The notes under the pieces: generated by a model
Databases searched by the model: none
Told to the model about the DNA's origin: nothing
What the model saw: only the letters and a program-made list of their open reading frames with translations
Program-made: the position numbers and the translations under genes
Assembly (NCBI GenBank): GCA_964642015.1
Contig: CAZXLF010000001.1
Span: 254,375 to 318,374, forward strand
DNA length: 64,000 nucleotides
From: an uncultured Planctomycetia bacterium
GTDB lineage: Bacteria > Omnitrophota > Gorgyraeia > 2-02-FULL-51-18
Reading direction: 5' to 3'
In this document: one piece after another, positions 21,378 through 45,377 of the stretch
Layout: each line of letters opens with the position of its first letter
Numbering within the stretch: position 1 is the first letter of the stretch

Positions 21378-21382
21378 ATCCC

Positions 21383-28141: not shown

Positions 28142-28286
28142 GTTCTGAGAGTTTTCGAATATTTCCGTCAAATCCCAATTATTTGTATTCCTCTATTTTG
28201 CAGTGTACACTATAGGTTCATTATCAATCGGATAGCAGGCTCTATCAGCGCTTATATCGTAAATAGGATCTCTAGGAAGTTGACTT

Positions 28287-29696: not shown

Positions 29697-30954
29697 TCAT
29701 TTCTCATCAGTGAAGATCGCGATCATCACGCCGCTTTATTATCCTTCGGTCGGCGGCACCCAAACGTCCCTTGGTTTTTTAGGAAAGTTCTTATCGGCAC
29801 AAGGTCACGAGGTCCGTGTCTATACGAGCCAGCTAGGCAGGATGGACGAGCTTAAGATCCCGAGTTCAAAAAGGATCCAAAATTTTCCGGATACCGAGAC
29901 CAAAGACGGCGTGCTGATCAAGCGTTACTCGTGCGGCGGCGTTTTGGATTTTTGCTTGGGATTCGCGTATGCGGTCTCATTCAAACTAAAACTTCCTTTT
30001 ACGGAGGCGCTGTTCGACCTTTACCGGTTAAGGGTAGCGAGAGTTTCACGCTTGCTGAAGGACTTGAGGACCTTTGCGCCTGACGTTGTCTTAGCCGATC
30101 CTTATATTGGATATCAGGCCGAGATCCTGTTCCGCGCACAGAAAACCACCGGCGCAAAGATCATGATGCGTACCGCCCTGCATATCGATTTTCCCGGTTC
30201 CGATTATTCTCCGAAGAAACTCAAGCGGTTGGCAGGCTTGGATGCAGTGATGACTAATACCGAATATGAACGCCGCTTTCTGATCGATTGCGGAGTGAGT
30301 GCGGAGCGGATCCATGTTACGGGTGTCGGGATCGACTCACAAGAATGGAGCGCAGCTTCCGCGGATGATGGCGCTGATATCTCTTTGCAGAAAAAATTGT
30401 CAGGCAAAAAATACGTGCTTTATTTAGGCAGAAAACAGGAAGGCAAGGGGATCGAGACATTGATCGAGGCGATGCAGAAAGTCGCAACGCGTTTTCCGGA
30501 CGCCGTGCTTGTGCTCGCCGGAGAGTCGACGCCTTATTTTGATCAGAAGGTAGCGCCTCTGATCAAGAGGCACAGTTTTATTGAGAATGTGGGCCGGGTG
30601 CAGGGTGCCGTGAAACGATGGCTTTTGCAGAACGCTTATATTTTTTCGATGGTGTCAAATGCCGACAGTTTCGGCATTGTTTATTTGGAGGCATGGTTGT
30701 GTAAAAAACCGGTGATCGGCGCGGACCTTGGCGCGATGCGCTGCGTGATCGATGAAGGGAAGGACGGTTTTCTTGTCCCTTACGGCTCTGCGGATATCCT
30801 TGCGGAAAAGATCAGCGCGCTTCTTCAAGATGCTTCGCTTGCGAAAAGTATGGGCGAGCGGGGATGTGAAAAGGCCGTAGGCCTGTATGATCATCGCGTG
30901 ATTGGAAAAAAGATCGAAGATCTGATGCTGGAAATCTCGCGGAAAAGACCCTGA
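29677..30954 (+). CDS. glycosyltransferase family 4
   Basis: 'IAIITPLYYPSVGGTQT' N-terminus; C-terminal 'VYLEAWLCKKPVIGADLGAMRCVIDEGKDGFLV'. Alternative GTG start at 29710. Confidence 0.7.
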   Translation: MVTAPNNHFSSVKIAIITPLYYPSVGGTQTSLGFLGKFLSAQGHEVRVYTSQLGRMDELKIPSSKRIQNFPDTETKDGVLIKRYSCGGVLDFCLGFAYAVSFKLKLPFTEALFDLYRLRVARVSRLLKDLRTFAPDVVLADPYIGYQAEILFRAQKTTGAKIMMRTALHIDFPGSDYSPKKLKRLAGLDAVMTNTEYERRFLIDCGVSAERIHVTGVGIDSQEWSAASADDGADISLQKKLSGKKYVLYLGRKQEGKGIETLIEAMQKVATRFPDAVLVLAGESTPYFDQKVAPLIKRHSFIENVGRVQGAVKRWLLQNAYIFSMVSNADSFGIVYLEAWLCKKPVIGADLGAMRCVIDEGKDGFLVPYGSADILAEKISALLQDASLAKSMGERGCEKAVGLYDHRVIGKKIEDLMLEISRKRP

Positions 30955-31106
30955 AATAATCTTAATTTTATGTCGTTTTACATCTATTGATTTTACTGAT
31001 TTATTAGGTTATAATATGACTCTTTATGGTTGGTCTGCTCTATGATTTTCCCTTCGATGATCCGTAGACTCGCAAAGTCTTAAGAGTTATTTTTAGGGTG
31101 ATTTAG

Positions 31107-31736
31107 ATGATTTGGGGGCAATTAGTGTCGCAAAAATATTTACGTTCAACAATTTTGTTTATTCTTCTTCTTTTGATCAGCGTCTACTCTTACGCTGCTG
31201 AAAATGGTACGCCAGCGGTTTCGAGCCCTACCTCGGTATCATTGCAATACCAGATCGGCGTGGATGATATTATAGAGATAGACGTTCTTCAGCCTCAGCA
31301 GCTTGCATCAACGCTGACGGTTGCGCCGGATGGCACGATCACTTTTCCGTATATAGGGAGCGTTCAGGTTAAAGGCTGTACGCTTGCAGATGTCCAGCAA
31401 AAGATCCAGGCCGGGCTGATGGATTATATGAAATATCCTGTGGTCAGCGTGTCGTTAACGCAATCGCGCAGCCGTATGTTTTATGTGTACGGTGAGGTGA
31501 ATCATCCCGATTCTTACGTGATCCAGGAAAATATGACGGTAGTGCAGGCGATCTCAGTTGCCGGCGGATTCACAAAGGTAGCTTCGACCAACGACGTCAA
31601 AATACTACGGCACAATCATGACGGATCAGGAAGTAACACGATCACCGTGCGGGTATCCGATGTGATGAGCGGCAAATCGCAGGATGTGAAAGTCGAGCCC
31701 GGTGATGTGATCACGGTGCCGCAGAAATTTTTCTAA
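31107..31736 (+). CDS. Wza/GumB-like periplasmic polysaccharide export protein
   Basis: Signal/TM N-terminus, 'YQIGVDDIIEIDV' polysaccharide-export motif and the SLBB-like block 'ENMTVVQAISVAGGFT'. Confidence 0.8.
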   Translation: MIWGQLVSQKYLRSTILFILLLLISVYSYAAENGTPAVSSPTSVSLQYQIGVDDIIEIDVLQPQQLASTLTVAPDGTITFPYIGSVQVKGCTLADVQQKIQAGLMDYMKYPVVSVSLTQSRSRMFYVYGEVNHPDSYVIQENMTVVQAISVAGGFTKVASTNDVKILRHNHDGSGSNTITVRVSDVMSGKSQDVKVEPGDVITVPQKFF

Positions 31737-31737
31737 A

Positions 31738-33402
31738 ATGAGCCAACAACTGATGAACCAGATGAACGGTGCGAACAACACGACTCCCATTACACCCGTG
31801 ATCGCTGAGCGTCCGATCAAGACGACCCGTGATTACGTGAAGGTGGTTTTTCGTCAAAAAAGATTCATTATCCTGACCGTCATCGTCGTCACATTGATGA
31901 CTTATTTCGGGCTTAAATTTTTTACACCGGTATATGAATCGGAAGTAAAGATGCTTGTCTCAGCCGAAAAGGAAACTGACGCGCCGTACCAGCGTGATTT
32001 TTCTATCTATAGCGGCAATGACTCCGGTCAGACGCTCACTCAAAGCGAGATCGTGACCTCCAAGCCCGTGCTTGAGCGCGCGGTGCTGGCTTTGGGTTTG
32101 AACGAGCGCCCTCTTGATTATGAAAATCACTTCGCGTCGCCTTTGAAGCAAAAATTTGTGAATTGGCAGAACAAGCAAACCGGTGCTCGGCTTGAAACCA
32201 TGGCGCTCCAGCAGAAAGAAGGGCTCAAATTCTACATGGCGATGGAAGACTTGAAAAGTCGCGTGAAAGTGACACCGGTCCGCGACACGCACTTATTTTC
32301 GATCGTCGTGACGGATTTCAGCCCGATCGCCGCGGCGGTGACGGCCAATGCGGTGAGCCGCTCTTACGTGATGTTCGATCTGGAGCAGCAGTATGTCGAT
32401 CTTCAAGCCAAGTATACTGAAAAAAATCCCGTTGTTATCCAGATGAAGGAAAATATCGCGAATATCAGAAAAGGGCTTTCCGGCCAGCCTCTGCCAAGTA
32501 TTGAGGCGATAGGCCCGGCCTCGGTCAAGATCATCGAACAGGCGACGCCGGCTTTAAAACCCGTTGGCCTTCCGCGAAAATTGATTCTTCTGATCGGCTT
32601 CGTGATGAGTATTTTTCTCGGCGCATTTTTGGCATTCAGCTTTGAGTATCTCGACCAAACATTTCACTCCAAGCAGGACCTTGAGGTATTTTTGGGCGCT
32701 CCGGTGATCGCCTGCATCAATAAGAAAAAAGGGTTGGGCGACCGCCAGCTGGTCCATGATGTGTCCGATACCAACAAATCGCCTCGCGCGGTGTCCTATC
32801 GTATCTTGGCCCAGCAGATCCTTTTCATGGTGAAGACGAAGAATCTAAAGCACATGCTTTTTGCATCCGTGAATCCCGCAGATGATTCGGCGACTATTCT
32901 TTCGAATTCAGCTGTTTTTATATCCAGTCGTTTGGGACTGCGCACTCTTGTGATCGATGCGAACTTAAGAAATCCTTCGCTTCATAAATTTTTCAAAGGC
33001 AAGGTCAATCAGGGTCTTGCGGAGATCTTGGAGGGAAGCCTTAAGTCTGAAGAAGCGGTCCGGCCAGTGAATGAAAAGCTTCATTATATTTCCGCCGGCC
33101 ATAGCGTCGCGGATCCCGGCATTCTACTAGGCAAGGAATCTTTTTCTCGTATCCTATTGACCTTAAGCCCATCTTATGACCTGCTTCTGATTAACGGCGC
33201 GAATGTACGTGATTTCCGCGACACACCGCTTATTGCTTCATCCACGGATGGTGTTATCCTGATCATCGGCGAAAGCACCGTACGCCGTCAGGTCGTTCAG
33301 TATTCGATGAAGCACCTGAATGACAACCACTGCCGTATCCTCGGCGCGGTCATGCCCAATCGGGAATACATGATCCCGAAATTCCTCTACGAAAGCGTTT
33401 GA
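31738..33402 (+). CDS. Wzc/GumC-like polysaccharide co-polymerase with a degenerate (probably inactive) BY-kinase-like C-terminal domain
   Basis: N-terminal Wzz-type domain with a TM helix and long periplasmic segment. The C-terminal ~230 aa are collinear with CpsD/Wzc ATPase domains but Walker A is 'SVNPADDSAT' (no GK[ST]), Walker A' is 'VIDANLRNP' (D to N), Walker B is 'LLINGAN' (no Asp), and there is no terminal Tyr cluster. Confidence 0.75.
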   Translation: MSQQLMNQMNGANNTTPITPVIAERPIKTTRDYVKVVFRQKRFIILTVIVVTLMTYFGLKFFTPVYESEVKMLVSAEKETDAPYQRDFSIYSGNDSGQTLTQSEIVTSKPVLERAVLALGLNERPLDYENHFASPLKQKFVNWQNKQTGARLETMALQQKEGLKFYMAMEDLKSRVKVTPVRDTHLFSIVVTDFSPIAAAVTANAVSRSYVMFDLEQQYVDLQAKYTEKNPVVIQMKENIANIRKGLSGQPLPSIEAIGPASVKIIEQATPALKPVGLPRKLILLIGFVMSIFLGAFLAFSFEYLDQTFHSKQDLEVFLGAPVIACINKKKGLGDRQLVHDVSDTNKSPRAVSYRILAQQILFMVKTKNLKHMLFASVNPADDSATILSNSAVFISSRLGLRTLVIDANLRNPSLHKFFKGKVNQGLAEILEGSLKSEEAVRPVNEKLHYISAGHSVADPGILLGKESFSRILLTLSPSYDLLLINGANVRDFRDTPLIASSTDGVILIIGESTVRRQVVQYSMKHLNDNHCRILGAVMPNREYMIPKFLYESV

Positions 33403-33474
33403 TCGCCGTTTGTTATCCCAATCAAGCCTGCTTATTTAAAGAGAGATCTTTAAAAAATTAATCAAGAAAACAAA

Positions 33475-33504
33475 GGGCTAGGCCGAATTTCTTCGACCTA
33501 GCCC
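33475..33504. terminator. bidirectional rho-independent terminator between convergent genes
   Basis: Hairpin 'gggctaggccgaa-tttc-ttcgacctagccc' (8+4 bp stem) between the + strand gene ending at 33402 and the - strand gene ending at 33532, followed by a T-rich tract. Confidence 0.5.
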
Positions 33505-33531
33505 AAGCGTTCTATTTGTTGATCGCCAATA

Positions 33532-33828
33532 TTACTTAAGCACTTTGTGCAATTCAGCCAGAGATTTATCAATATATTGGATTGCTAAATCTCGGTTAGT
33601 GCCACCAAAATTAGAAGAAGTATTCGATAATTCATGTCTGGCTCTTTCCAGAGAAGAGATTGCAATATACCATGCATCTTCTCGCTCTTTATTGGGGTCT
33701 TTATGAGCTGGCTTGCTGGAAACTGCTGCTGGTTTAGTAGGTGTGTTTGTGTCAGCAAAAACATGAATTGATTGGAAGCCAAATAAAATAACAAATATTG
33801 CGCACAACATTAATCTACGACTCTTCAT
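33532..33828 (-). CDS. small secreted hypothetical protein
   Basis: N-terminal signal peptide 'MKSRRLMLCAIFVILFGFQSIHVFA'. No recognisable domain. Confidence 0.45.
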   Translation of the reverse strand: MKSRRLMLCAIFVILFGFQSIHVFADTNTPTKPAAVSSKPAHKDPNKEREDAWYIAISSLERARHELSNTSSNFGGTNRDLAIQYIDKSLAELHKVLK

Positions 33829-34189
33829 TTATTCCCCCTTATTTAACGTTAATCACCTTAAATGTTCTTTCTTTTACCTAAAGATTTATTATACCTCATT
33901 TGAGAAAAATATCGATCTTTTACTGAAGAAAATTATTTAATTTTTCTCAAAATAATCCTAGTGCAACCTAGTTAGAACCATATTTTGCACGAACTTTAAG
34001 CTTCCATAAACCAAAGGGGTTAAGATCTATATTGCAAGACCATCTGCGTACACCATGAAGTATTATTTCCACTTCATACAAGTTCCCTTTTGGGGTTAAA
34101 ACTATAGCTTTAAGCTCTTTTATTGGAGTTGGATTAGAAAGCCGAGTCCTTAGGAGATTACAAGTGAGTGTTATTGATCGGAATAACAG

Positions 34190-36031
34190 CTATTCTGTGT
34201 AATGATAGCCAGCGTCGGGATGAATGTTGACGTCATCCGGAGTGCCGTCTTTTCGGGCGCTGCCGTCGATAGGAACCGGCTTACCGATGGCTTTCTTGAC
34301 CCAATCGGGGAGCGTCGAGTACCAGGATGTCGTTCCCAGATCGATGGCAGGGGAGTCGGGAGACAGATGAGCATCGTAATCGGCGCTTTTGTCATTTGAA
34401 AGAAGCGCATTGGCAGCGACAGAATGTTTGTCCTGGCCTGAGATAGACTGCCATTCAGAAAGACCGATCGATTTATCATGTACTTTGAATAATTTCGTTA
34501 TTTCCGAAGACTTGCTCCAGACGTTATAATCGGAATCCATACGCAGATAATTGTCAGCGCCAATGCTTCCTATTGCGGCTCCCGCATTGGCGTTTTGATT
34601 GAATATGCAATTTTTTATTGTTAGTTTCCCATCAGAAGAAAAATGGTAGACACCAAAGGTCCGGTAGGCATCTTTAATACCTTGCCCAATGTTAAAAGTA
34701 TCGTTGTAAAGATAAACTTTCCCCATTTTATCAGTATTATCGTTGATGCTGATCGTGATTGCATCGCCTTTGTTGCTATAAGAAAGAGTATTGATCACAT
34801 ACAGCTCATCCGGAGTCCTGATGGACGAGTGTTCCGAAGACAGGGAAATTCCTGATGTAATGCTCGAGTTGTTTCTGGTGCCCGCGCCGTGCGTTTTGCA
34901 GGAGTAAATCAGGATATGGTCGGCACCGTCGCTGTAAAAACCGGCATCAAAATTGCCTTTAGCATTCCATTCCTGTGCATTAGTATCCGCTTCGCAGCGT
35001 ATGGCACCCGAATACTGGACCTTAGTATTGGCGTTATAATCCAAAAAATCAAAACCGGCGCGTCCGCCGTATTGCGCGAAACAATCGATCCACCAGGAAT
35101 AAGAGGACTCCATTGTGAAATTCTGCCCGTGCCCGTTGCCTCCGGAGTTACTAAAACGTCCTGTACACCGCACACAGGAATTGTAATCCGCCCCGTTTTC
35201 AGGAGGATTTATTCCGTTTCGGACAAAATAAAAAGATTCTTTACCGTTGTACTCGGCCCAGCAATCGATGAACTGAACATGCTGGCTTTGTGAGCGGAAA
35301 GCTTCGCCGTTCGACCATCTTACATGAAGGTTTTTTGCGACGACCCACGGCGCACTGCCTGTTTTATCGCCGATCTTGATCAGTGCATCGTATTGTTCTT
35401 TGGGATATTGCCCCAACCGTATTGTGTGAGCCGATGGATCAGAGCCATCCAGCAGTTTTAAAAAGACAAGATGACTACTCCATGAAAGCATATAAGCTGA
35501 TGCTACATCAGATGCGGTGGTTACTCCTCCAAATCCATCCAATTGATGCTTAAGATAAGCCACTTCATTGTCATCTACTGAAAGTAGATATAAAAAGTCG
35601 CCCAAATATTTGGCATTTGTTTGATAAGTGTGTCCGCTAGAATCATTAGGATAAACGGTCCAGCCGCCTTTGTAGATCTCGCTCCCTATAAAAAGGGGAT
35701 CGTTATCGTGATATTTAAGTTTCCCAAAAACTACTTTACTTTGGGGTTCGCCATAAGCGTCCAAAACAATAGGGTTATTTTCAGCTCCCGAGGAGTTAAG
35801 CGTCCAATACGCGTCTTTACCGACCCAGGTGTCTCCGCGTTTGAATGACACTTCGTCGCCCGGTTTTAGAAAATTGTGCCCTGTGACGGCTGAGGGAGTT
35901 TTGAAAGCATAGGCGGGATCGGTACCGTTATTGGAATTATTACCATCGGAATTACTGATGTAATAATGAGTAGCCCATGCTTTGGTAGTTAGCAAAAGAA
36001 ATAAAAGTATAAAGTAAGAAGTTTTCTTCAT
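34190..36031 (-). CDS. secreted right-handed parallel beta-helix protein (pectate-lyase-fold; candidate polysaccharide lyase/depolymerase or adhesin)
   Basis: Signal peptide 'MKKTSYFILLFLLLTTKAWA'. Repeated Asn/Gly-rich beta-helix rungs such as 'IKNCIFNQNANAGAAIGSIG' and 'VRCTGRFSNSGGNGHGQNF'. Confidence 0.55.
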   Translation of the reverse strand: MKKTSYFILLFLLLTTKAWATHYYISNSDGNNSNNGTDPAYAFKTPSAVTGHNFLKPGDEVSFKRGDTWVGKDAYWTLNSSGAENNPIVLDAYGEPQSKVVFGKLKYHDNDPLFIGSEIYKGGWTVYPNDSSGHTYQTNAKYLGDFLYLLSVDDNEVAYLKHQLDGFGGVTTASDVASAYMLSWSSHLVFLKLLDGSDPSAHTIRLGQYPKEQYDALIKIGDKTGSAPWVVAKNLHVRWSNGEAFRSQSQHVQFIDCWAEYNGKESFYFVRNGINPPENGADYNSCVRCTGRFSNSGGNGHGQNFTMESSYSWWIDCFAQYGGRAGFDFLDYNANTKVQYSGAIRCEADTNAQEWNAKGNFDAGFYSDGADHILIYSCKTHGAGTRNNSSITSGISLSSEHSSIRTPDELYVINTLSYSNKGDAITISINDNTDKMGKVYLYNDTFNIGQGIKDAYRTFGVYHFSSDGKLTIKNCIFNQNANAGAAIGSIGADNYLRMDSDYNVWSKSSEITKLFKVHDKSIGLSEWQSISGQDKHSVAANALLSNDKSADYDAHLSPDSPAIDLGTTSWYSTLPDWVKKAIGKPVPIDGSARKDGTPDDVNIHPDAGYHYTE

Positions 36032-36156
36032 GGGTTTATTCTAGCATATTGTCGGCCAACTCCCCCAACCCCTCTTTAAGTAGAGAGGGGAGAATTTTAG
36101 ACTAGCTGTTTCCCCCTCTTCATTTGAAGAGGGGGAAAGGGGGAGTTCAGATTGAC

Positions 36157-38679
36157 TCACGCCAGCGCTTGAAGCTTATCCCACGGGAACTGTTTCATGA
36201 CGTCCCAAAGCTGGAGTCCACCGAAATAGGGTGCATAGGCGTCTTCTCCTTTGCCGTACTGCGTTGGGTCCTCAGCAGTGAAGACGACCGAGCTTGCCTG
36301 GTCGCGCACGATCATGCCATAGTCCCGGATCGCGATCACCATCATTTTGACGATGGGGGACCAGTTGGGATCGATCGTGATATTAGCGGGGAAGCGGAAG
36401 CGGGTCCCTTCGGGGATCGCATTGGGGCCTGTGTACCAGCCGTCGCTTCGCTGGGCAGGCCACACATAATTGGTCCAGGTCGCGGGACGTACGATCGCGA
36501 CGGCGAGTTCATGCGGGATCACACCGGCCTGAACTTCTTTAAGAAGCATTGTGCCTCCGATCGTCGGAAGCCCTGTGGCGGTGGCGCCCCATTGCTCATC
36601 ACCTCCGAGAGTATTTTTCACAGTGGGCATGATGCCGCTTGAAGTGCTTGCGTTATCAATGATCCCTCCCCAGCTTGCCTGCCACTGGCCGTTCACTTTC
36701 TTGAACTGCCAGAACTCATACAGTTTATCGGCACTCTTATCATAAATAGTGATCTCGCCATCGAGACCCCCTGATGCGGCCACGTTCGCGGGGATCGGGA
36801 TGCCTTGCTGACAGACCTGGTAAAGCGCGGTCCAGGTCAGCGTCTGTCCGTTTTGGACGATCGAGACAGGAGCTTTTGTGGCGCTTGAGTCCACGATATA
36901 GTACGGTGTGCTGTACTGTGTGATATTGATCCACGGACCGGCAAGCTGAGTATTCGCGACGAATTCATTCACATAATTCGCTGAGTTGGCATTCAGCGCT
37001 TGATTTGCGGACAAGGGCTGATTCCAGAATGAAGTTGGACTGAAAAGCTCCCCTGTTGGCGGAGGCGGGGGAGGCGGCTGCGTCGGCAATGTTGTGAGTG
37101 AATTTAGGAAACTTGCTAAATCAAAGTTCGAAGCGCCGGTTATGACAAAAAGAACGTTGCGATCGTTGGCCGAGGGGGATCCCGATGTTGGTAATTGTGT
37201 GAAATAGCGTGTGTTGAAAACGGAGCATTTGTCCGAATCTGCCAAAAGCGCGTTGTATAGATCCGTGACTTTTTGCAACTTTGTTAAAAAGGTTGTCTGA
37301 TTAAAAGCCGGATCACTCACAACACTTAGGATTTCAGCACGGTCGGTAGAGTTTGGGTAACCTGTTGTGAGTAGAGAAGTTTTATAAATTAGATTAAAGT
37401 TTGATAGGTTGGCGATATTAGCTTGCATAAAATGATAAAAACCAGACGCTTTTAATATGGAAGTCAAAAAATTTGCTTGGGTATAAGCAGGGTCACTAAC
37501 AACGAGCAATAGAGGAGAATAATCGGAAGCGCCCCCAAAAATGTTGTTATAGTACCAAGTGTAGGATGTGTTGCTTTTTATTGCTTTATAAAGATCCGCA
37601 GCTTTCTGGAGTATGGCCAGAAAGCTTGTTTGATTAAAATTAGAGGTGCCTGCAACATTTAAGAGTGTAGCCCTGTCTGTAACGCTCGGATAACCCGTTG
37701 TTGGAAGAGAAGTTTTATAAATCAGATTAAAATTAGATAAATTAACAGAGTTGGACTGCATATATCTATACAAATTTGAAGCGAGTTGCACCGTCTTTAT
37801 GAATGTCGTTTGATTATAAGAGGGATCGCTAGCGGCATTTACCAAAGGGGAATAGTCGGAAGTACTCCCGAAGACATTTCCGTAATACCAGAGATAACCC
37901 CCTGTCTTCATTGTATTGTACGTGTCCGCAGCTTTCTGGAGTATGGCCAGAAAGCTTGTTTGATTAAAATTAGAGGTGCCTGCAACATTTAAGAGTGTAG
38001 CCCTGTCTGTAACGCTCGGATAACCCGTTGTTGGAAGAGAAGTTTTATAAATCAGATTAAAATTAGATAAATTAACAGAGTTGGACTGCATATATCTATA
38101 CAAATTTGAAGCGAGTTGCACCGTCTTTATGAATGTCGTTTGATTATAAGAGGGATCGCTAGCGGCATTTACCAAAGGGGAATAGTCGGAAGTACTCCCG
38201 AAGACATTTCCGTAATACCAGAGATAACCCCCTGTCTTCATTGTATTGTACGTGTCCGCAGCTTTCTGGAGCGACGACAGGAATTTAACCTGATTAAAGC
38301 TAGAAGGGCTTGTAACGTTTAACAGGACCGAACTGTCAGATGCCGTGGGAGCTCCGGAAGTTGTGAGAACAGTCTTATAGATAAGATTGAAATTTGAAAG
38401 TTCTCCGGAATTTGATTGTAATTCACTAAGAAGAAGATTTGCCGCCGTTTGGTTCAAAAGTTGCGCAGGCGTCAGAGGCGCTGTTGACGGAATGGTAATG
38501 ATTGTATTTTTGGAATCGATCAAGTTTTGGCTGGTCTGAGCTGCCTGTTGAGTTTGGGCCGGAGTAAATCCGCTGGGCGTTGTGGTCTGAGTCGTCGGAT
38601 CAGCCGCAAGTAAGACTTTGCCGTCGGTTAAAAAAAAGCTTAAAAGAACTAGGTAAAAAAACACCGCTCTATTTTTCAT
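36157..38679 (-). CDS. secreted tandem-repeat protein: signal peptide, ~7 half-repeats of ~55 aa, poly-proline linker, unassigned ~350-aa C-terminal domain
   Basis: Signal peptide 'MKNRAVFFYLVLLSFFLTDGKVLLA'. Alternating repeats 'SNFNLIYKTSLPTTGYP...FNQTSFL..LQKAAD.Y' and 'YLWYYGNVFGSTSDYSPLVNAASDPSYNQTTFIKTVQLASNLYRYMQSN', then 'PTQPPPPPPPTG', then a C-terminal domain with no motif I recognise. Confidence 0.65.
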   Translation of the reverse strand: MKNRAVFFYLVLLSFFLTDGKVLLAADPTTQTTTPSGFTPAQTQQAAQTSQNLIDSKNTIITIPSTAPLTPAQLLNQTAANLLLSELQSNSGELSNFNLIYKTVLTTSGAPTASDSSVLLNVTSPSSFNQVKFLSSLQKAADTYNTMKTGGYLWYYGNVFGSTSDYSPLVNAASDPSYNQTTFIKTVQLASNLYRYMQSNSVNLSNFNLIYKTSLPTTGYPSVTDRATLLNVAGTSNFNQTSFLAILQKAADTYNTMKTGGYLWYYGNVFGSTSDYSPLVNAASDPSYNQTTFIKTVQLASNLYRYMQSNSVNLSNFNLIYKTSLPTTGYPSVTDRATLLNVAGTSNFNQTSFLAILQKAADLYKAIKSNTSYTWYYNNIFGGASDYSPLLLVVSDPAYTQANFLTSILKASGFYHFMQANIANLSNFNLIYKTSLLTTGYPNSTDRAEILSVVSDPAFNQTTFLTKLQKVTDLYNALLADSDKCSVFNTRYFTQLPTSGSPSANDRNVLFVITGASNFDLASFLNSLTTLPTQPPPPPPPTGELFSPTSFWNQPLSANQALNANSANYVNEFVANTQLAGPWINITQYSTPYYIVDSSATKAPVSIVQNGQTLTWTALYQVCQQGIPIPANVAASGGLDGEITIYDKSADKLYEFWQFKKVNGQWQASWGGIIDNASTSSGIMPTVKNTLGGDEQWGATATGLPTIGGTMLLKEVQAGVIPHELAVAIVRPATWTNYVWPAQRSDGWYTGPNAIPEGTRFRFPANITIDPNWSPIVKMMVIAIRDYGMIVRDQASSVVFTAEDPTQYGKGEDAYAPYFGGLQLWDVMKQFPWDKLQALA
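37597..38272. repeat. perfect direct tandem repeat, 330-bp unit, about 2.05 copies (within CDS 36157-38679)
   Basis: Read by eye, 37597-37926 is identical to 37927-38256, and the first 16 nt of a third copy follow. Older, diverged copies of the same unit extend on both sides (~37200-38400). Confidence 0.85.
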
Positions 38680-38925
38680 TACAAAACCCCCTTGCCCAAA
38701 CTCGCAGTAATCACCTTAGATATTTTTGAATCCTTTTTAAATTAAAATTTGATTAATAAATCTTACAAAACGATCATTAAAATTTGATGAAAATAAGATT
38801 AATTTTTCTTAATGGCCTATTTTATACCATATTCCGCTATGAATTAGCGAATGTTTTCTCTTATAATATTTAAGATCCAAATGAGAGAAAAAAATATTTT
38901 TTTGGAAGATCCGAGTCAAAACTGA

Positions 38926-38992
38926 AAAATCAAAAGTCAAAACCGCAACTTAAAACGCAAAATGTTTTTGTTTGTTTTGACTTTTGATCTTT
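38926..38992. repeat. inverted repeat in the divergent intergenic region
   Basis: 'atcaaaagtcaaaac' (38929-38943) is the reverse complement of 'gttttgacttttgat' (38974-38988), a 15-bp stem with a ~30-nt spacer. The repeated 'gtcaaaac' motif also occurs at 38915. Confidence 0.4.
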
Positions 38993-39135
38993 AACTTTTG
39001 AGTTTTTAGTCACCGTATTATAGTTGTATATACAAAAGTATTATGCTACAATGACCCCTTTCGATTTAATCCCAAACCGGGTTTTCGTAGGGCTATCTGA
39101 TCAGAGAAGTGTTAAAAAACAAAAAGGACCATGAG

Positions 39136-39351
39136 ATGGAAGATAAATTGAAAAAGGAGGCGTTCTTGACAGTCGACCTTAAAGAAGTAGACAGCATCGC
39201 TCAGGACATCGTCTCAAGAAAAAAGGATGCTGTCTTGAACATCCGCATGAATAGCAGGGATCTGCGCAGTATCAAGCAAAAGGCGAGGAAGATGGGCGTT
39301 AAGTATCAGACGTTCATCTCTGAGCTTCTGCATCGCATCGCGCATAGCTGA
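39136..39351 (+). CDS. BrnA/CopG-like ribbon-helix-helix small protein (orphan antitoxin-like)
   Basis: C-terminus 'NIRMNSRDLRSIKQKARKMGVKYQTFISELLHRIA' resembles the BrnA antitoxin family. No BrnT/DUF497-like partner ORF is visible nearby. Start ambiguous among 39109, 39136 and TTG 39162. Confidence 0.45.
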   Translation: MEDKLKKEAFLTVDLKEVDSIAQDIVSRKKDAVLNIRMNSRDLRSIKQKARKMGVKYQTFISELLHRIAHS

Positions 39352-39356
39352 TCTTT

Positions 39357-39884
39357 ATGGAAAAGATCAAGCGCTCATTCCACTGCTTCCTATATTACGG
39401 TTTTGCTAGGCATTTACCTATCTCGTATTTGCCGGGTGGCAAGATTGCTAAAGCGATCCGCGCTTTTATCTGTAGGCGTCTTTTCAAAAAATGCGGTAAG
39501 GACGTGAATGTCGAAGCTAAGGCCTTTTTTAACACCGGTCGCGAGATAGAGCTTGGAGATCATTCGGACATAGGGGTCAATGCCAAGGTATTTGGTCCGG
39601 TCGTGATCGGGAAGGATGTGATGATGGGGCCTGATGTGGTGTTCGTTGGCGGAGCACACGAATTTGGCCGTATTGACATTCCGATGAGGAAACAAGGATT
39701 TAAAACACCTATGCCAACGATTGTATCGGATGATGTTTGGATTGGAACGAGGGCGTTGATTTTGGCAGGGGTCAAGATCGGCCGCGGGGCGATCATCGGG
39801 GCCGGCGCAGTTGTTACCAAAGATATTCCCGATTGGGCGGTTGTTGTGGGAAATCCAGCTCAAGTCATTCGGTTAAGAAAATGA
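39357..39884 (+). CDS. hexapeptide-repeat (LbH) sugar O-acetyltransferase
   Basis: 'VWIGTRALILAGVKIGRGAIIGAGAVVTKDIPDWAVVVGNPAQVIR'. Confidence 0.8.
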   Translation: MEKIKRSFHCFLYYGFARHLPISYLPGGKIAKAIRAFICRRLFKKCGKDVNVEAKAFFNTGREIELGDHSDIGVNAKVFGPVVIGKDVMMGPDVVFVGGAHEFGRIDIPMRKQGFKTPMPTIVSDDVWIGTRALILAGVKIGRGAIIGAGAVVTKDIPDWAVVVGNPAQVIRLRK

Positions 39885-40405
39885 ACCCTAATTTTCAATC
39901 AACCACTTTATGGTTCACCGGTAGACCGTGTTCGGGAAAAAGCACGATAGCAGCTCACCTTGTCAAAGAAATGGAAAAGAGGCAAATTCGTATTGCAAGA
40001 CTTGACGGTGATGATGTACGCGGTCGATTAAATTCGGATTTGGGTTTTACTGACAAAGATCGGCGTGAAAATTTACGCAGAATAGCGCACGTGGCACAGC
40101 TATTTAATGAGAACAATAATTTTGTGATCGCTACGTTTGTATCGCCCACCAATGATATGAGAGCGTTGGTTCGGAGAATCATAAAGAATTTCAAATTATG
40201 TTACATCCGCTGTGCTCCCGAAGTATGCGAAAGCCGGGACGTAAAAGGCATGTATAAAAAAGCCAGAGCGGGTCAGATCAAAGATTTTACCGGTATTTCG
40301 GCACCTTTCGAAGAACCGATCGGGCCTGAGATTATTGTAGACACTGATCACGCTGGTATAGATCAGTGTGTGAATCATATATTGAAAGAGATGGGGATCG
40401 GATAG
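39881..40405 (+). CDS. cysC: adenylyl-sulfate (APS) kinase
   Basis: 'LWFTGRPCSGKSTIA' P-loop in the exact APS-kinase context, and 'ARLDGDDVR' matching the LDGDN(V/I)R APS-binding motif. 174 aa. ATG at 39881 overlaps the upstream stop. Confidence 0.85.
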   Translation: MNPNFQSTTLWFTGRPCSGKSTIAAHLVKEMEKRQIRIARLDGDDVRGRLNSDLGFTDKDRRENLRRIAHVAQLFNENNNFVIATFVSPTNDMRALVRRIIKNFKLCYIRCAPEVCESRDVKGMYKKARAGQIKDFTGISAPFEEPIGPEIIVDTDHAGIDQCVNHILKEMGIG

Positions 40406-41178
40406 TGTCATTGACTGATATTGATAAAGCGATTTTACCTGAAATTATCAACATCGCCGAAGATGCGGGCCGATCGATCTTAAGGATCTATTCGCTTAGC
40501 GATTTTGGTATCGTGATGAAAATCAATGATTCTCCTTTAACTTTGGCAGATACAGCGGCGCATGAAGCGATCGTGAGATCCTTGAACCGGTTGACGCCGG
40601 ATTGGCCGGTGTTGTCGGAAGAATCGAAATCCGTTCCTTATAATATAAGGAAGGAGTGGAAAACTTTTTGGATGGTCGATCCTTTGGACGGAACGAAGGA
40701 ATTCATTAAAAGGAACGGAGAGTTTACCGTAAACATTGCATTGATCAAAGGCAATGTTCCCGTGATGGGGGTCGTGCATGCGCCGGTGAAGCAGCTGACT
40801 TATTTTGCAGAAGATCGCCAAGGCGCTTTTAAAAGTATCGCCGGCGCTAAAGCGGAACGGATACAAACGGATAAAAAGCCTAAAGGGGTTTTGAAAGTCG
40901 TCATTAGTCGTGATCATATCGGCGGCGAAATGGAAGCATTTCTAAAAACTCTCGAACATTATGAAGCGGTGCACGTGGGAAGTTCGTTGAAATTTTGTTT
41001 GGTGGCCGAAGGTCAGGCGCATCTTTATCCTCGTTTTTGGCCCTGCATGGAGTGGGACACCGCAGCGGCGGAGTGTGTGGTGCGCGAAGCTGGAGGTAGC
41101 GTGAAAGATCTTTCGGGAAATAACTTGAAATACAATAAACCTGATCTTCTAAACCCATATTTTATCGTCAAAGCATAA
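40366..41178 (+). CDS. cysQ: 3'(2'),5'-bisphosphate nucleotidase (inositol monophosphatase superfamily)
   Basis: 'WMVDPLDGTKEFI' metal-binding motif (DPxDGT) and 'GSSLKFCLVAEGQA'. Genomic pairing with APS kinase supports a CysQ role. GTG start at 40366 or 40405. Confidence 0.75.
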   Translation: MCESYIERDGDRIVSLTDIDKAILPEIINIAEDAGRSILRIYSLSDFGIVMKINDSPLTLADTAAHEAIVRSLNRLTPDWPVLSEESKSVPYNIRKEWKTFWMVDPLDGTKEFIKRNGEFTVNIALIKGNVPVMGVVHAPVKQLTYFAEDRQGAFKSIAGAKAERIQTDKKPKGVLKVVISRDHIGGEMEAFLKTLEHYEAVHVGSSLKFCLVAEGQAHLYPRFWPCMEWDTAAAECVVREAGGSVKDLSGNNLKYNKPDLLNPYFIVKA

Positions 41179-41193
41179 AAGAAAGGGAGCAAC

Positions 41194-41865
41194 ATGGAAG
41201 AAATTATGGAGCTGGATCTGAACAAGCCGGGAAGTATAGGGGAAAAGTCTTTCAATATTTTATGGGAAAAAATAAAAAGTTTAGCGGCAAAAAATATATT
41301 GGAATTCGGAAGCGGTGTAAGCTCGATCAGAATGGCTAGAGCTTTCCCGGAGACGAACATCGTCTCGATCGACCATGACCTTAAGTATTATAGGAAGACG
41401 CATACCTTGAAACGGAAATATTGTCCCGGTTCCAATTTGAACATCCTGTTTTCACCGCTTCGATATCAATGGTCGAGCGGAAGTCTGTTCTTGAGTTATG
41501 CCAAAAATAAATTTAGCGGGATCTTTGATTGTGTGATCATCGATGGCCCTCAAAGCTGGCTAACCCTTAGGGGCAGGGAAGTTTGTTTGTATAAGGTCTA
41601 CGAAAATTTAAGGATTGGTGCAGTGGTGGTACTGGACGATTATTCAAGAGAGGAAGAAAAGACCGTTCTCAAAAACTGGCTTTTGACCTATCCCGGCAGT
41701 TTTAGAGTGGACGTTGTCGAGGAAGGTCATCATCTGGTTTTTTTGACAAAGGTAAAGCAGGTAAAGCCGCGTTATTTTTGCTGGTCGAAGTTTATCGACA
41801 ACCTGCAGACAAATATACATTTGTTTTTAAGATCATTTAAAAGAAGGTTTATTCCAGCGCATTAA
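41194..41865 (+). CDS. putative class I SAM-dependent (O-)methyltransferase
   Basis: 'NILEFGSGVSSIRMA' glycine-rich motif I followed by 'VVLDDY' acidic motif. The assignment is weak. Confidence 0.4.
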   Translation: MEEIMELDLNKPGSIGEKSFNILWEKIKSLAAKNILEFGSGVSSIRMARAFPETNIVSIDHDLKYYRKTHTLKRKYCPGSNLNILFSPLRYQWSSGSLFLSYAKNKFSGIFDCVIIDGPQSWLTLRGREVCLYKVYENLRIGAVVVLDDYSREEEKTVLKNWLLTYPGSFRVDVVEEGHHLVFLTKVKQVKPRYFCWSKFIDNLQTNIHLFLRSFKRRFIPAH

Positions 41866-41871
41866 CAAACT

Positions 41872-44205
41872 ATGGATCTAAAACAAAAAACGATAAAAGG
41901 CTTGAGCTGGTCATTTGCCTCTCAAGCAGCCAGACAGGTCAGCCAATTTGCGGTGACCGTCATCCTGGCGCGCTTATTGATGCCCGACGATTTTGGACTG
42001 GTGGGAATGGCGACCGTTTTCACCGGATTCATTTCAGCGGTCAATGAGATCGGTGTAAGCGGAGCTCTAATCCAAAGGCAGCAAGTGGACGAAAGCCATT
42101 ATAGTTCGGTTTTTTGGCTGAACATTTTTCTGGGAACGGCATTTACAGCCTTATTCATTGCCGTGTCTCCGGCGATCGCGGCATTTTACAACAAACCCGA
42201 ACTCATCTCTATTTTAAGGATCAGCGCTTTTAATTTTATTTTGGCAGCATTTTCCATCGTGCAAAGAGCTATTTTCCAAAAACATATGGAATTTAAAAAG
42301 CTTGCCGTGATCGAAACTTTGGCGATCGTTATAGGGGGTGTCGTCGGAATCGTCATGGCTTACCGCGGATTTGGTGCATGGAGTTTGGTCTACCAAATGA
42401 TCGCATTCACGCTGGCCAATACGGTTTTGTTGTGGCTGTTTTCCCACTGGAGACCACGGTTTATTTTTTCCATCTCTTCGATCAAAGATATATTCGGTTT
42501 CAGCGCGCATGTGACGGGATTTACTGTCATGAATTACTTCGCCAGGAACGTGGATTATCTTTTGATTGGTAAATTTTTGGGCGCAGAATCGCTAGGTTAT
42601 TACACCTTGGCCTATAAACTAATGCTCTATCCTTTGCAGAACGTTACTTGGACCATACAAAAAGTAATGTTTCCGGCGTTTTCAGTTATCCAAAATGACA
42701 TCGCGAAGGTCAAGAACGCCTATTTAAAGATGATAAAAAGCATATCGATCACAGTGTTTCCGATGATGTTCGGTCTTTTTGCGCTGGCGCCTGAATTGAT
42801 CGACGCCGTTTACGGAGCCAAATGGCTGCCTTCGGTGATCGTTATCAGGATTTTTTGTTTTTGCGGAATGATCCAGTGCCTTTCGAGTACGGCGGGCACT
42901 ATTTATCAATCTCAAGGCCGTTCGGATATCCAATTTAAGATAGGTTTTCTCGGATCTTTGGGGGCTGTTTTATCTATTATTTTAGGACTTCGCTGGGGCA
43001 TTGAAGGAGTAGCGGCCTGTTATACTGCCTATTCCATTCTGTGGGGATTTTATTCACTGTACATCGTAGAAAGATTGATCAGTTTAAAGAAAAAAGATTT
43101 TTATTTATTATTCGCCAAGATATTCCTGATCTCATCGGGCATGTTCCTTTTTACGTTGTATCTCAAGAGTATTTTAAGAATTCATGGCTGGCCGGAATTA
43201 ATGATTGTCATGACAGCGGCAGCCACTGTTTATGTTTTTTTGTTGCTTGTTTTTAAACAAATCGGTTATCAAAATATGGATCATGTTTTGAATGGTAAGA
43301 AACAAAATACCAAAGTTGCGCCCAATTTCTTTTGTGTAGGCACAAAGAAAGGTGGCACGACGACTTTGCAGGATATTTTAGTACAGCACCCAGATATTTA
43401 TTTGCCCAAGGTAAAAGAGACAAAATTTTTTGCAATCGAAGAAAAATACTCCAAAGGAATTGAGTATTACAAAAAAGAGTATTTCTCAAGATGTAATGGT
43501 CAAAAAGCGGTAGGAGAAATTGATCCCGCTTATATGTTCGTCCCTTATGCCCCTTCAAGGATCCACAAAGCTTTAGGAGATGAGATAAAGATTATTTTCC
43601 TTCTGCGAAATCCGGTTGACCGAGCTTATTCTCATTATCTGATGAATTACCGTTGGGGTATCGAGAGTAGATTATTCGAAGAAGCGATAGAAGCTCCCGA
43701 GATCGTGCCAAGCGAAGGATTGTCGTTGGACGATTTTTCAAACAAATATAATTTCTGTTATAGGGAAACTGGTTATTATGCAAAACAGATATCCGCCTAT
43801 TTAAAGTTCCTCAAAAGATCCAATATGATCTTTTTTGTTTTTGAAGAGGATATTAAATCAAATATCCGATCGACTATTGAGTCTATAGAGAAGTTTCTTG
43901 GGATCAGGCACGTTGAATTGAACTTTAATAAAATAAGCAACCCTGCAAGTATGCCTAGATTTAGGATCATCAGGGATTTTACGAGAAAAACAAATATCGT
44001 AAGAAAAATAGGCAAACACTTTTTCCCATCTCAATCCTTACGATATAGGATCCTTATGAGAATAGATGAAATGAATCAAGTTGAAATCAAGCCAAAACCT
44101 TTGGATAGTTCATTCAAAAAATATCTACTAGACAAATATTACAAAGAAGAGGTCAAGGCATTGGAAGTCATTTTGAACAGAAATTTAAGCGTTTGGATGG
44201 AATAA
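41872..44205 (+). CDS. fusion protein: Wzx/MOP-type polysaccharide flippase (aa ~1-460) and PAPS-dependent sulfotransferase domain (aa ~470-777)
   Basis: N-terminus has ~12 hydrophobic helices with a Wzx-like start 'LSWSFASQAARQVSQFAVTVILARLL'. The C-terminal domain has the sulfotransferase 5'-PSB loop 'FCVGTKKGGTTTL' and 3'-PB motif 'LLRNPVDRAYSHY'. Confidence 0.75.
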   Translation: MDLKQKTIKGLSWSFASQAARQVSQFAVTVILARLLMPDDFGLVGMATVFTGFISAVNEIGVSGALIQRQQVDESHYSSVFWLNIFLGTAFTALFIAVSPAIAAFYNKPELISILRISAFNFILAAFSIVQRAIFQKHMEFKKLAVIETLAIVIGGVVGIVMAYRGFGAWSLVYQMIAFTLANTVLLWLFSHWRPRFIFSISSIKDIFGFSAHVTGFTVMNYFARNVDYLLIGKFLGAESLGYYTLAYKLMLYPLQNVTWTIQKVMFPAFSVIQNDIAKVKNAYLKMIKSISITVFPMMFGLFALAPELIDAVYGAKWLPSVIVIRIFCFCGMIQCLSSTAGTIYQSQGRSDIQFKIGFLGSLGAVLSIILGLRWGIEGVAACYTAYSILWGFYSLYIVERLISLKKKDFYLLFAKIFLISSGMFLFTLYLKSILRIHGWPELMIVMTAAATVYVFLLLVFKQIGYQNMDHVLNGKKQNTKVAPNFFCVGTKKGGTTTLQDILVQHPDIYLPKVKETKFFAIEEKYSKGIEYYKKEYFSRCNGQKAVGEIDPAYMFVPYAPSRIHKALGDEIKIIFLLRNPVDRAYSHYLMNYRWGIESRLFEEAIEAPEIVPSEGLSLDDFSNKYNFCYRETGYYAKQISAYLKFLKRSNMIFFVFEEDIKSNIRSTIESIEKFLGIRHVELNFNKISNPASMPRFRIIRDFTRKTNIVRKIGKHFFPSQSLRYRILMRIDEMNQVEIKPKPLDSSFKKYLLDKYYKEEVKALEVILNRNLSVWME

Positions 44206-44225
44206 GAACCCAAGAAATTTAGAAC

Positions 44226-45377
44226 ATGAATATGAATGTGCTGATGCTCACGAGATATTTTCCGCCGGAGTTTGGTGGAGCTGCTATCCAGGCGACGTAT
44301 CTGGCAGACGAATTGAGAAAACAAGGGGCGAATATCGAATTCTATGTGGACAACGGTAGCCGTAAGACAGCTGTTGACTTGTATAATGGCACCAAAGTCT
44401 ATAGGGACAGGACCTATGCGGATAAAGGTTTTTTGCGCAATTGGATTTACTATTTCAAACTGTTTTTATTTATAGCCCGTAATCCAAAATACAAAATATT
44501 GCATTTTCATTCAATGAACGGTATTGAGTCTATCTGGTTCCCATTTTTCAGGCTCATGAAAAGAAAGATTATATTCAAGTTAACGCTTGTAGGCATTGAT
44601 GATCCTCAGAGTTTCAGAAAAAGAAAGATGGGATTTTTTATTTGTTGGGCGCTTGGTTTTGTCGATAAATTCGTGGCTATATCCAAAGCACTTTTTGAAA
44701 AATCTACGTCGGCTGGGATCAAAAAGGACAAAATAGTTTATATTCCAAATGGGGTCAACGTTGAAAAATTCAACCGGATCGAAACCTTAAAAAAGAATGT
44801 GCTGAAGGCGAAACTTGGATTAAGCAGTTTTTCAAAGATCTTTTTTTCTGTCGGAAAAATTGAACTGCGCAAGGGTTATGATTTTTTGTTAAATGCCTGG
44901 ATCAAAATTTGCGACACTTTTCCGGCATCGGTGCTTATCATAGGAGGCCCCGGCAATGTGCCGGAAAATGAGTATTATCTGAAACTTCAAAACATGATAA
45001 AGGAAAATGGATTAAAAAATATCATCTTCCTTGGTCAGATTGATAACGTGGATGAGTATATGAAGATATCGGACGCGTTCTTGTTTTGCTCGCTTCGAGA
45101 AGGTTTTGGGAATGTTCTGATCGAAGCTATGTCCACCGGTGTTCCGGTCGTATCGCGCTATCTTCACGGGATAACCGACGATATTATAATTGATCCTGAA
45201 ATCGGCCGGGTTGTTAAAGAAGATTCATTTGAAAAATACGCTGATGAAGTCATTTCATTTATTCAAAATATCAACCAAGAGAAATCACTAAAGGCGTCAG
45301 AAAAAATAAGATCGAAGTTTGATATTAAAATCATTAGCAGACAATATACAGAGCTTTACCAGGCGCTGAGCATATGA
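44226..45377 (+). CDS. glycosyltransferase family 4
   Basis: 'VLMLTRYFPPEFGGAAIQATYLADEL' and 'EGFGNVLIEAMSTGVPVVS'. Confidence 0.8.
   Translation: MNMNVLMLTRYFPPEFGGAAIQATYLADELRKQGANIEFYVDNGSRKTAVDLYNGTKVYRDRTYADKGFLRNWIYYFKLFLFIARNPKYKILHFHSMNGIESIWFPFFRLMKRKIIFKLTLVGIDDPQSFRKRKMGFFICWALGFVDKFVAISKALFEKSTSAGIKKDKIVYIPNGVNVEKFNRIETLKKNVLKAKLGLSSFSKIFFSVGKIELRKGYDFLLNAWIKICDTFPASVLIIGGPGNVPENEYYLKLQNMIKENGLKNIIFLGQIDNVDEYMKISDAFLFCSLREGFGNVLIEAMSTGVPVVSRYLHGITDDIIIDPEIGRVVKEDSFEKYADEVISFIQNINQEKSLKASEKIRSKFDIKIISRQYTELYQALSI

Follow-up and report, generated by a model that had tools for sequence, protein, structure and literature searches.

We report here on a 330-bp tandem duplication within a minus-strand gene that encodes a secreted repeat protein of 840 residues, found in an uncultured bacterium that is deposited as a member of the Planctomycetia and placed by GTDB in the Omnitrophota. 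The window, by which we mean the whole stretch of 64,000 nucleotides that was analysed, is derived from contig CAZXLF010000001.1 of assembly GCA_964642015.1. We consider it probable that the duplication is a real and very recent in-frame event, which took an old and diverged repeat array from one copy of the unit to two, that it arose at a short stretch of microhomology, and that it is still segregating. A search of the whole 64-kb window with Tandem Repeats Finder recovered one array (37595-38271; 677 bp, with a period of 330 and 2.1 copies), with 100% matches and zero indels. Direct comparison established that 37597-37926 and 37927-38256 are equal base for base, and at an offset of 330 the exact match extends over 347 nt (37595-37941 against 37925-38271), which far exceeds chance. 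The duplicated unit corresponds to 110 codons and lies in frame within the open reading frame (ORF) at 36157-38679. In a one-copy version of the window, from which one of the copies had been removed, zero 30-mers were repeated anywhere.

An earlier reading of this DNA, which was made from its letters without database searches (hereafter the sequence-only reading), had described two perfect tandem copies of 330 bp and the beginning of a third. Both methods confirm the two perfect copies. A partial third copy is also present, but it is restricted to 17 nt (37595-37611) and is the microhomology of the duplication itself. The same reading had proposed repeats of ~110 aa made up of two half-units, and we noted that such half-units indeed alternate between lengths of 56-60 aa and 54 aa. 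The 330-bp unit spans one long and one short module in an offset register, beginning with the LQKAAD at the end of a long module and terminating at the residue before the next LQKAAD.

Copy number in sister sequencing runs

The exact 840-aa protein is represented by an NCBI record on a contig of 510,541 bp, which carries two copies of the unit. The same 90% protein cluster also contains a protein of 730 aa (840 minus 110) from the Logan assembly of run SRR12313480. The corresponding contig of this run, which is 18,125 bp long, is 100.000% identical to positions 27421-45875 of the window and free of gaps, save that it contains a single copy of the unit. The 90% cluster of P0001/P0008 additionally holds an unrelated fragment of 46 aa (P0009), and clusters of other window proteins have unrelated members of 44-54 aa.

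Logan contigs are produced by Cuttlefish2 and Minia3 from 31-mers after k-mers seen once have been discarded, and in the contigs of a run any 31-mer is by construction present only once (PMC12424806). A two-copy gene is thus never written out in full in Logan, because a 31-mer cannot recur within its contigs. At k=31 such a gene is predicted to form a loop in the graph, with the flanking contigs stopping k-1 = 30 nt inside the repeat, at window positions 38242 and 37624; one contig should end at base 30 of the unit, and the other should open with the unit's final 13 bases, followed by the 17-nt partial copy. A zero-copy deletion allele would give a break at another base. In SRR12313479 we found precisely these edges, with contig_582822 ending at 38242 and contig_10054 starting at 37624, both being 100% identical to the window. 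In SRR12313478 contig_148484, likewise 100% identical to the window, starts at 37624, and here one side only is known. The contig from SRR12313477 terminates upstream of the gene and is uninformative. Given that the one-copy window has no repeated 30-mer, no branching of the graph is expected at these positions without a unit-to-unit junction. The breaks at the predicted positions in runs 478 and 479 therefore indicate that this junction is contained in reads from no fewer than two independent runs, and the duplication is thus not an artefact of the deposited assembly.

An assembly artefact had been raised as a possibility by the sequence-only reading and is essentially excluded by these two assemblies of other runs. 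In its specific form, this explanation holds that the genome has one copy and that the assembler wrote two. In its favor, tandem repeats are known to cause errors in assembly (PMC6868369). However, exact self-similarity at the 330 spacing amounts to just 17 nt in the one-copy sequence, which is also free of repeated 30-mers, leaving a de Bruijn assembler without anything to loop on, and the two runs break at positions that only the unit-to-unit junction predicts. We hence regard a false expansion as highly improbable.

The converse explanation is that all populations are two-copy and that the one-copy Logan contig is a collapse, in which case the duplication would be real without being polymorphic. 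It is favored by the inability of Logan contigs to repeat a 31-mer, whereby two copies never appear in full, and by the sizes of the contigs of this strain, which are only 3-43 kb, so that coverage may be modest. However, the two-copy loop broke the contigs of runs 478 and 479 instead of collapsing, and run 480 alone would need to have the 13 k-mers of the junction missing, or present at less than ~1/4 of the neighbouring coverage, amid 18 kb without gaps. The read-through in SRR12313480 requires that these 13 junction-specific 31-mers be absent or rare, where "rare", as we understand the heuristics of Minia, would mean below about a quarter of the neighbouring coverage, or less than about a third two-copy cells. 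The chance loss of just those 13 k-mers is unlikely, and we estimate it at ~1% or less. Taken together, a collapse appears quite unlikely to us.

We hence return to a segregating duplication, and consider it very probable that copy number differs within one near-clonal population. Variation in copy number had been anticipated by the sequence-only reading, and the 100%-identical contig of 18,125 bp with one copy, set against the junction signature of SRR12313478 and SRR12313479, agrees with it. The very recent origin that it had offered as one explanation of the perfect identity is likewise upheld by the exact repeat and by the one-copy sister allele in an otherwise identical background. It should be noted that certain points weigh against our interpretation. 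The evidence for copy number comes from assembly graphs rather than from reads, and the runs counted as two-copy have 2 or more copies. A one-copy Logan contig is also expected if the 13 junction 31-mers were dropped by chance or as a low-coverage connection, and the estimate given above for their chance loss rests on our own understanding of the heuristics of the assembler. The four runs SRR12313477-80 may be replicates rather than different samples. Finally, the mechanism and the role of a hairpin that are proposed below are read from the sequence alone. The deposited copy number of 2 is a lower bound. A 50-mer of the unit had zero matches in a scan of JGI metagenomes.

Breakpoints and the age of the array

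In the one-copy allele the 17-mer CTCCAGAAAGCTGCGGA, encoding LQKAAD, is present twice, exactly 330 bp apart, and it is the joint-longest exact direct repeat in the one-copy gene. The sequences flanking the two 17-mers show only ~35-57% identity in an ungapped comparison. One arm of an inverted repeat (AGCTTTCTGG/CCAGAAAGCT) falls within this microhomology, and as single-stranded DNA the inverted repeat is predicted to fold with an energy of -9.6 kcal/mol (z = -2.9). Short direct repeats close to hairpins are well known to give rise to duplications by slippage or template switching. We infer that nascent-strand slippage, or unequal exchange between sister chromosomes, could have occurred between the two copies of CTCCAGAAAGCTGCGGA and thereby generated the two-copy allele, with the hairpin-forming inverted repeat beside one of the 17-mers possibly assisting the process. 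The organization of the two-copy allele as unit, unit and 17-mer is exactly the product expected from unequal pairing of the 17-mers, and this explains the "third copy that begins". The new allele would be as yet unfixed, with one-copy and two-or-more-copy alleles occurring in sister samples of an otherwise identical strain. The presumed effect is an extension of the helical region that precedes the C-terminal domain by 110 aa, or two modules, with the frame and the C-terminal domain remaining unaltered. Two identical copies of 330 bp can recombine homologously, so that gains and losses of 110-aa units would be expected to occur much more rapidly at this locus than they did earlier.

Perfect identity would also result if gene conversion had recently homogenised two old neighbouring units. 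However, the one-copy allele, in its otherwise identical background of 18 kb, is without the unit rather than with a diverged version of it. Further, the identical tract stops exactly at the 17-nt microhomology, and the other units are without conversion tracts. This origin therefore seems to us barely conceivable. Gene conversion as an ongoing process, which was another suggestion of the sequence-only reading, is not supported, given that the other modules of the array are saturated at synonymous sites.

In codon-aligned comparisons the older units share 61% nucleotide and 57% amino acid identity with the new unit. The rate of non-synonymous substitutions (dN) between them is ~0.33, while that of synonymous substitutions (dS) is > 1.7 or not computable on account of saturation. 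These codon-aligned figures replace a blastn identity of 77.7% for the older copies, which had included the identical part. The flanking copies, which had earlier been called older and diverged, are thus even more so than blastn had implied. These values indicate that the old modules are of ancient origin, evolve under purifying selection and are not undergoing homogenisation. In four relatives examined at the DNA level (loci L007-L010), recent repeats are lacking and there is next to no DNA similarity within the gene. To compare modules at the protein level, an ungapped sliding comparison over stretches of 50 aa was applied to 16 proteins. One of these was the one-copy allele, and the rest were either homologs of the C-terminal domain or further proteins that bear the module. 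The best module-to-module identity in these proteins was 13-37 of 50 positions (a maximum of 74%), versus 50 of 50 in the allele of the window. The number of modules across the homologs of the C-terminal domain and the module carriers ranges from 0 in P0012, through two in P0003, P0004, P0011, P0014, P0016 and P0017 and ~4 in L008, to ~6-8 in P0002, P0146, P0150 and P0152. Module number is thus labile over evolutionary time, which is ordinary evolution of a domain array.

These observations bear on the possibility that the gene is an evolved variable-length locus, of the 'Periscope' or the contingency type, in which selection keeps the array recombinogenic and the population continually produces stalks of varied length. 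Such a locus would account for the apparent difference in copy number between runs, for a unit that consists of folded modules preceding a functional domain, and for the presence of 0 to 8 modules in homologs of the C-terminal domain, and the Periscope concept is itself on record (PMC8201768). However, only one pair of units is alike, the other modules being ~57% identical or less with saturated synonymous sites. The 16 relatives and module carriers, including the one-copy allele, lack any pair of modules above 74% over 50 aa, and the four relatives studied as DNA have no recent repeats. Moreover, no cell-surface anchor was found and only two states (one, and two or more) were observed. Hence, we consider an evolved variable-length locus unlikely. 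The sequence-only reading had interpreted variation of this kind as the signature of a contingency locus that is variable in phase or size, a view that is not supported, there being no sign of sustained homogenisation and no module pair above 74% in relatives. The in-frame change alters length rather than an on/off state, and nothing indicates that the protein is retained at the cell surface. Overall, the feature to which this reading pointed is real, and its inferences were for the most part sound.

Anatomy of the protein and its genomic setting

The features of the gene, its duplicated segment and the co-directional neighbours are collected in Table 1. At the N-terminus, AlphaFold2 predicts a helix spanning aa 3-16, after which the confidence of the model is low for a stretch, and homologs also begin with a hydrophobic segment. 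Inspection of the 840-aa translation by eye revealed no LPXTG motif, no lipobox cysteine and no second hydrophobic or transmembrane segment. The segment TQQAAQTSQNLIDSKN that follows the signal peptide is conserved in P0003, P0004 and P0013 and lies in the low-confidence region; it could conceivably serve as a docking element.

Table 1. Features of the 840-aa gene, the duplicated unit and the adjacent minus-strand genes (window coordinates)
Feature	Position	Strand	Remarks
Gene for the 840-aa secreted repeat protein	36157-38679	-	ORF list; stop codon 36157-36159
Signal peptide, ~aa 1-26 (MKNRAVFFYLVLLSFFLTDGKVLLA-cut-AD)	38602-38679	-	Read from translation; Sec-type, cleavage site inferred by eye
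All-alpha repeat array, aa ~71-532	37084-38469	-	Eight homologous modules M1-M8, 46-60 aa
Copy 1 of 330-bp unit	37942-38271	-	Gene nt 409-738, aa 137-246: end of M1, whole M2, most of M3
Copy 2 of 330-bp unit	37612-37941	-	Gene nt 739-1068, aa 247-356; same sequence as copy 1; missing from Logan contig SRR12313480_264131
Third 17-nt microhomology CTCCAGAAAGCTGCGGA	37595-37611	-	Encodes LQKAAD; others at 37925-37941 and 38255-38271; duplication breakpoints
Unit-to-unit junction string ACGTG-TCCGCAGCTTTCTGGAG-TATGG	37920-37946	+	Specific to the junction
Inverted repeat AGCTTTCTGG-7 nt-CCAGAAAGCT	37600-37626, again 37930-37956	.	Terminator-like scan; 10-bp stem, spans unit junction
Proline-rich linker TQPPPPPPPTGE, aa 533-544	37048-37083	-	Translation; AlphaFold2 pLDDT < 50 at aa 531-539
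C-terminal domain, 296 aa, aa 545-840	36160-37047	-	Conserved; related to phage minor tail proteins
Downstream co-directional gene, 613 aa	34190-36031	-	Signal peptide, no family match; N-terminus beta-helix-like by eye only
Third co-directional gene, 98 aa	33532-33828	-	Signal peptide, no family match

Each of the modules M1-M8 is predicted by AlphaFold2 to consist of one long and two short helices, and modules of a long and a short type alternate along the array. The long type is characterized by the pattern NFNLIYKT..TTGYPS.TDR..LLNV...NFNQT.FL..LQKA and the short type by Y.WYY.N.FG..SDYSPL....SDP.Y.Q..F. The model of the full-length protein has a mean predicted local distance difference test score (pLDDT) of 82, with values of ~85-94 in the array, which contains helices only, and a predicted template modelling score (pTM) of 0.47. 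No Pfam or NCBIfam family was recovered for the 840-aa protein or for the three-helix module, and the helical array had no fold match in the PDB. A profile search with the ~55-aa module shows that it is rare, with 50 representative proteins among 1.84 billion. Arrays of it occur in P0143-P0188, a set with proteins of up to 2,812 aa and up to 24 matched stretches in one protein of 1,739 aa, and the module is joined to different partners, including DUF5648 and large unannotated domains. Homologs were found in genomes of Omnitrophota and Planctomycetia.

The C-terminal domain has > 346 homologs, all of which are unnamed or labeled 'hypothetical' and 0 of which have a Pfam domain; the domain itself had no sequence match in Pfam, NCBIfam or the PDB. 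Its AlphaFold2 model is of high confidence (pLDDT 97.4, pTM 0.93). A Foldseek search of the PDB with this model returned nothing, the best match having E = 0.55 and a TM of ~0.1. In contrast to the PDB, the BFVD collection of predicted viral structures yielded a minor tail protein of the Gordonia phage Guillaume (E = 3e-18, TM 0.73), as well as a 'parallel beta-helix repeat' protein from a phage (E = 3e-13). The profile phrog_17388, 'minor tail protein', which has 702 positions, aligned through its positions 196-429 with residues 2-258 of the domain at E = 2.8e-10, and tblastn located the domain in 48 Gordonia phages at 27-30% identity. The C-terminal domain is thus a member of the phrog_17388 domain family, and the minor tail proteins of Gordonia phages are its only annotated relatives. 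Cellular homologs were found in genomes of Omnitrophota, 'Planctomycetia', Verrucomicrobiota, Patescibacteria and Actinobacteria, some of them fused to FN3-like and beta-helix-like segments.

Four residues of the domain, D640, H723, D746 and E757, are invariant or nearly so. Together with the fusions to FN3 and beta-helix segments and the position of the gene in a polysaccharide cluster (see below), these residues are suggestive of a role in relation to glycans. Our best guess, which we hold with low confidence, is that the C-terminal domain may be an extracellular glycan-binding or glycan-cleaving domain presented on a helical spacer. No glycoside hydrolase or polysaccharide lyase fold or family was recognised for the protein in Pfam, NCBIfam or the PDB. 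The link to polysaccharide clusters is not a conserved one, since the relatives in L007 and L010 lie outside such clusters, and there is hence no conserved tie of the protein to a polysaccharide locus.

Together with two neighbours, the 840-aa gene makes up a run of three genes on the minus strand (98, 613 and 840 aa; 33532-38679), whose products are exported, with signal-peptide-like starts, and have no family match. The gap of 125 bp between the 840-aa and 613-aa genes contains two G/C-rich inverted repeats at 36058-36150 (e.g. CCCCCTCTTCATTTGAAGAGGGGG), which were not called by a simple terminator scan because they lack a T-run. In the Patescibacteria metagenome-assembled genome JBBTXU010000042.1, a protein of 2,170 aa (L014, 6258-12770) combines a beta-helix-like N-terminus, an FN3-like segment, a member of the family of the C-terminal domain and many cadherin/Ig-like repeats. 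The N-terminal sequence of this protein resembles that of the 613-aa gene in the window, and this fusion of a 613-aa-like N-terminus with the C-terminal domain hints that the 613-aa and 840-aa products act together. Just upstream of the promoter region of the 840-aa gene there is a plus-strand ORF of 80 aa (39109-39351) with a weak match to BrnA-like antitoxins, which at E = 0.0026 falls well short of the cut-off for the family; the ORF probably encodes a small protein of the ribbon-helix-helix type.

The three genes form a minus-strand island amid large ORFs that nearly all lie on the plus strand and constitute a polysaccharide locus extending over 60 kb or more. This locus encodes Wzz, Poly_export, several glycosyltransferases, two Wzy-like and three flippase-like proteins, along with an APS kinase, a CysQ-like phosphatase and a fusion of a flippase with a sulfotransferase. 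The last three belong to a sulfation module at 39357-45377 (+), which comprises a hexapeptide acyltransferase, the APS kinase, the CysQ-like protein of the inositol-phosphatase family, a 223-aa protein without an assigned role, and the 777-aa Polysacc_synt flippase-Sulfotransfer_1 fusion (41872-44205, +). The cluster probably directs the synthesis of a sulfated exopolysaccharide. A pair of paralogous flippase-like genes (Polysacc_synt_3) at 8590-10164 and 26579-28141 (+) share patches of DNA that are 71-83% identical and always 17,989 bp apart, and the two Wzy-like genes are located at 18239-19723 and 46513-47850. With two paralogous flippases and a third one, and two Wzy-like genes, this region may serve the production of more than one polysaccharide. 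Also within the cluster is a 749-aa protein (21242-23491, +) with BNR/Asp-box and Sortilin-Vps10-type repeats, which could be a glycosidase or a glycan-binding protein. Scans of the window for Rfam families and tRNAs were empty.

Relation to known repeat systems and implications

The closest conceptual parallel is with the Periscope Proteins, among them SasG, Rib, Sgo_0707 and CdrA, which are surface proteins whose long and highly identical tandem repeats vary in number and thereby determine how far a functional domain can reach (Whelan et al. 2021, PMC8201768). As in these proteins, the repeats described here are long (> 50 aa), in frame and encode folded modules, a functional domain lies at the end of the array, the identity of the repeat DNA permits gain or loss of whole units, and length differs among close relatives. 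With respect to repeat identity, one 110-aa pair is 100% identical, while all other pairs are at ~57% or less. With respect to copy number, the assembly graphs point to one copy in SRR12313480 and the signature of at least 2 in SRR12313478 and SRR12313479, and the NCBI contig has two, all between flanks that are 100% identical. In contrast to the Periscope Proteins, only two units are identical here, the remainder being old and diverged, and the observed states are only one versus two (or more) copies. The modules are of a three-helix type without a Pfam family, the functional domain is C-terminal, and no anchor to wall or membrane was found. In the Periscope Proteins the repeats form an elongated rod; the present model has confident modules (pLDDT 85-94) and an overall pTM of 0.47. 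Furthermore, the organism is an uncultivated environmental bacterium rather than a host-associated pathogen. In how it works, the gene is like a nascent member of the Periscope class, though we do not file it as one.

In the classical contingency loci of Moxon and colleagues, hypermutable simple-sequence repeats reportedly toggle surface genes. The present duplication resembles them in that repeats mediate a heritable and potentially reversible change, which affects a gene whose product is exported. However, the unit here is 330 bp as opposed to 1-8 bp, the frame is kept, and size rather than expression is altered. The repeat is also a fresh mutation rather than a conserved feature of a gene family: a conserved hypermutable tract that switches frame or expression would be the mark of such a locus, and neither the sister allele nor the relatives contain the tract.

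In studies of tandem repeats in Escherichia coli, replication slippage or template switching reportedly causes duplications and deletions between short direct repeats, and the long repeats so produced then undergo homologous unequal exchange. The breakpoints at a 17-nt repeat beside a hairpin-forming inverted repeat, and a product of two perfect copies plus the microhomology, conform to this type of event. Unlike the E. coli duplications, the present case is known from its sequence. The C-terminal domain resembles in sequence and predicted fold the minor tail proteins of actinobacteriophages (the Gordonia phages Guillaume and Guacamole; phrog_17388). In contrast to these, the protein studied here is cellular, Sec-exported and encoded inside a polysaccharide cluster. 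Given that the phage proteins have no known biochemical activity, the match names a family of folds and not a function.

We also considered a more far-reaching possibility, namely the birth of a variable-length stalk, in which a stable and diverged array has just gained its first identical pair, is already polymorphic and could run away into a Periscope-like protein. We give this scenario a small but real chance of being correct. If it were true, the variable protein would bear a domain that is new to the literature and akin to phage tail proteins, with a confident predicted fold that has no solved counterpart.

Independently of this scenario, the duplication is a real but ordinary length polymorphism, an event of a known type in an unstudied protein and lineage, and not a specialised switching locus. 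The deposited copy number is a lower bound, and collapsed (730 aa) and expanded (840 aa) forms of the same protein coexist in public protein collections. The C-terminal domain and the helical module, both of which lie outside the curated families of Pfam and NCBIfam, are the more unusual by-products of this analysis. The locus itself offers a clean natural example of how a repeat array grows, in which microhomology within an old array seeds a perfect duplication that is then free to expand or contract.

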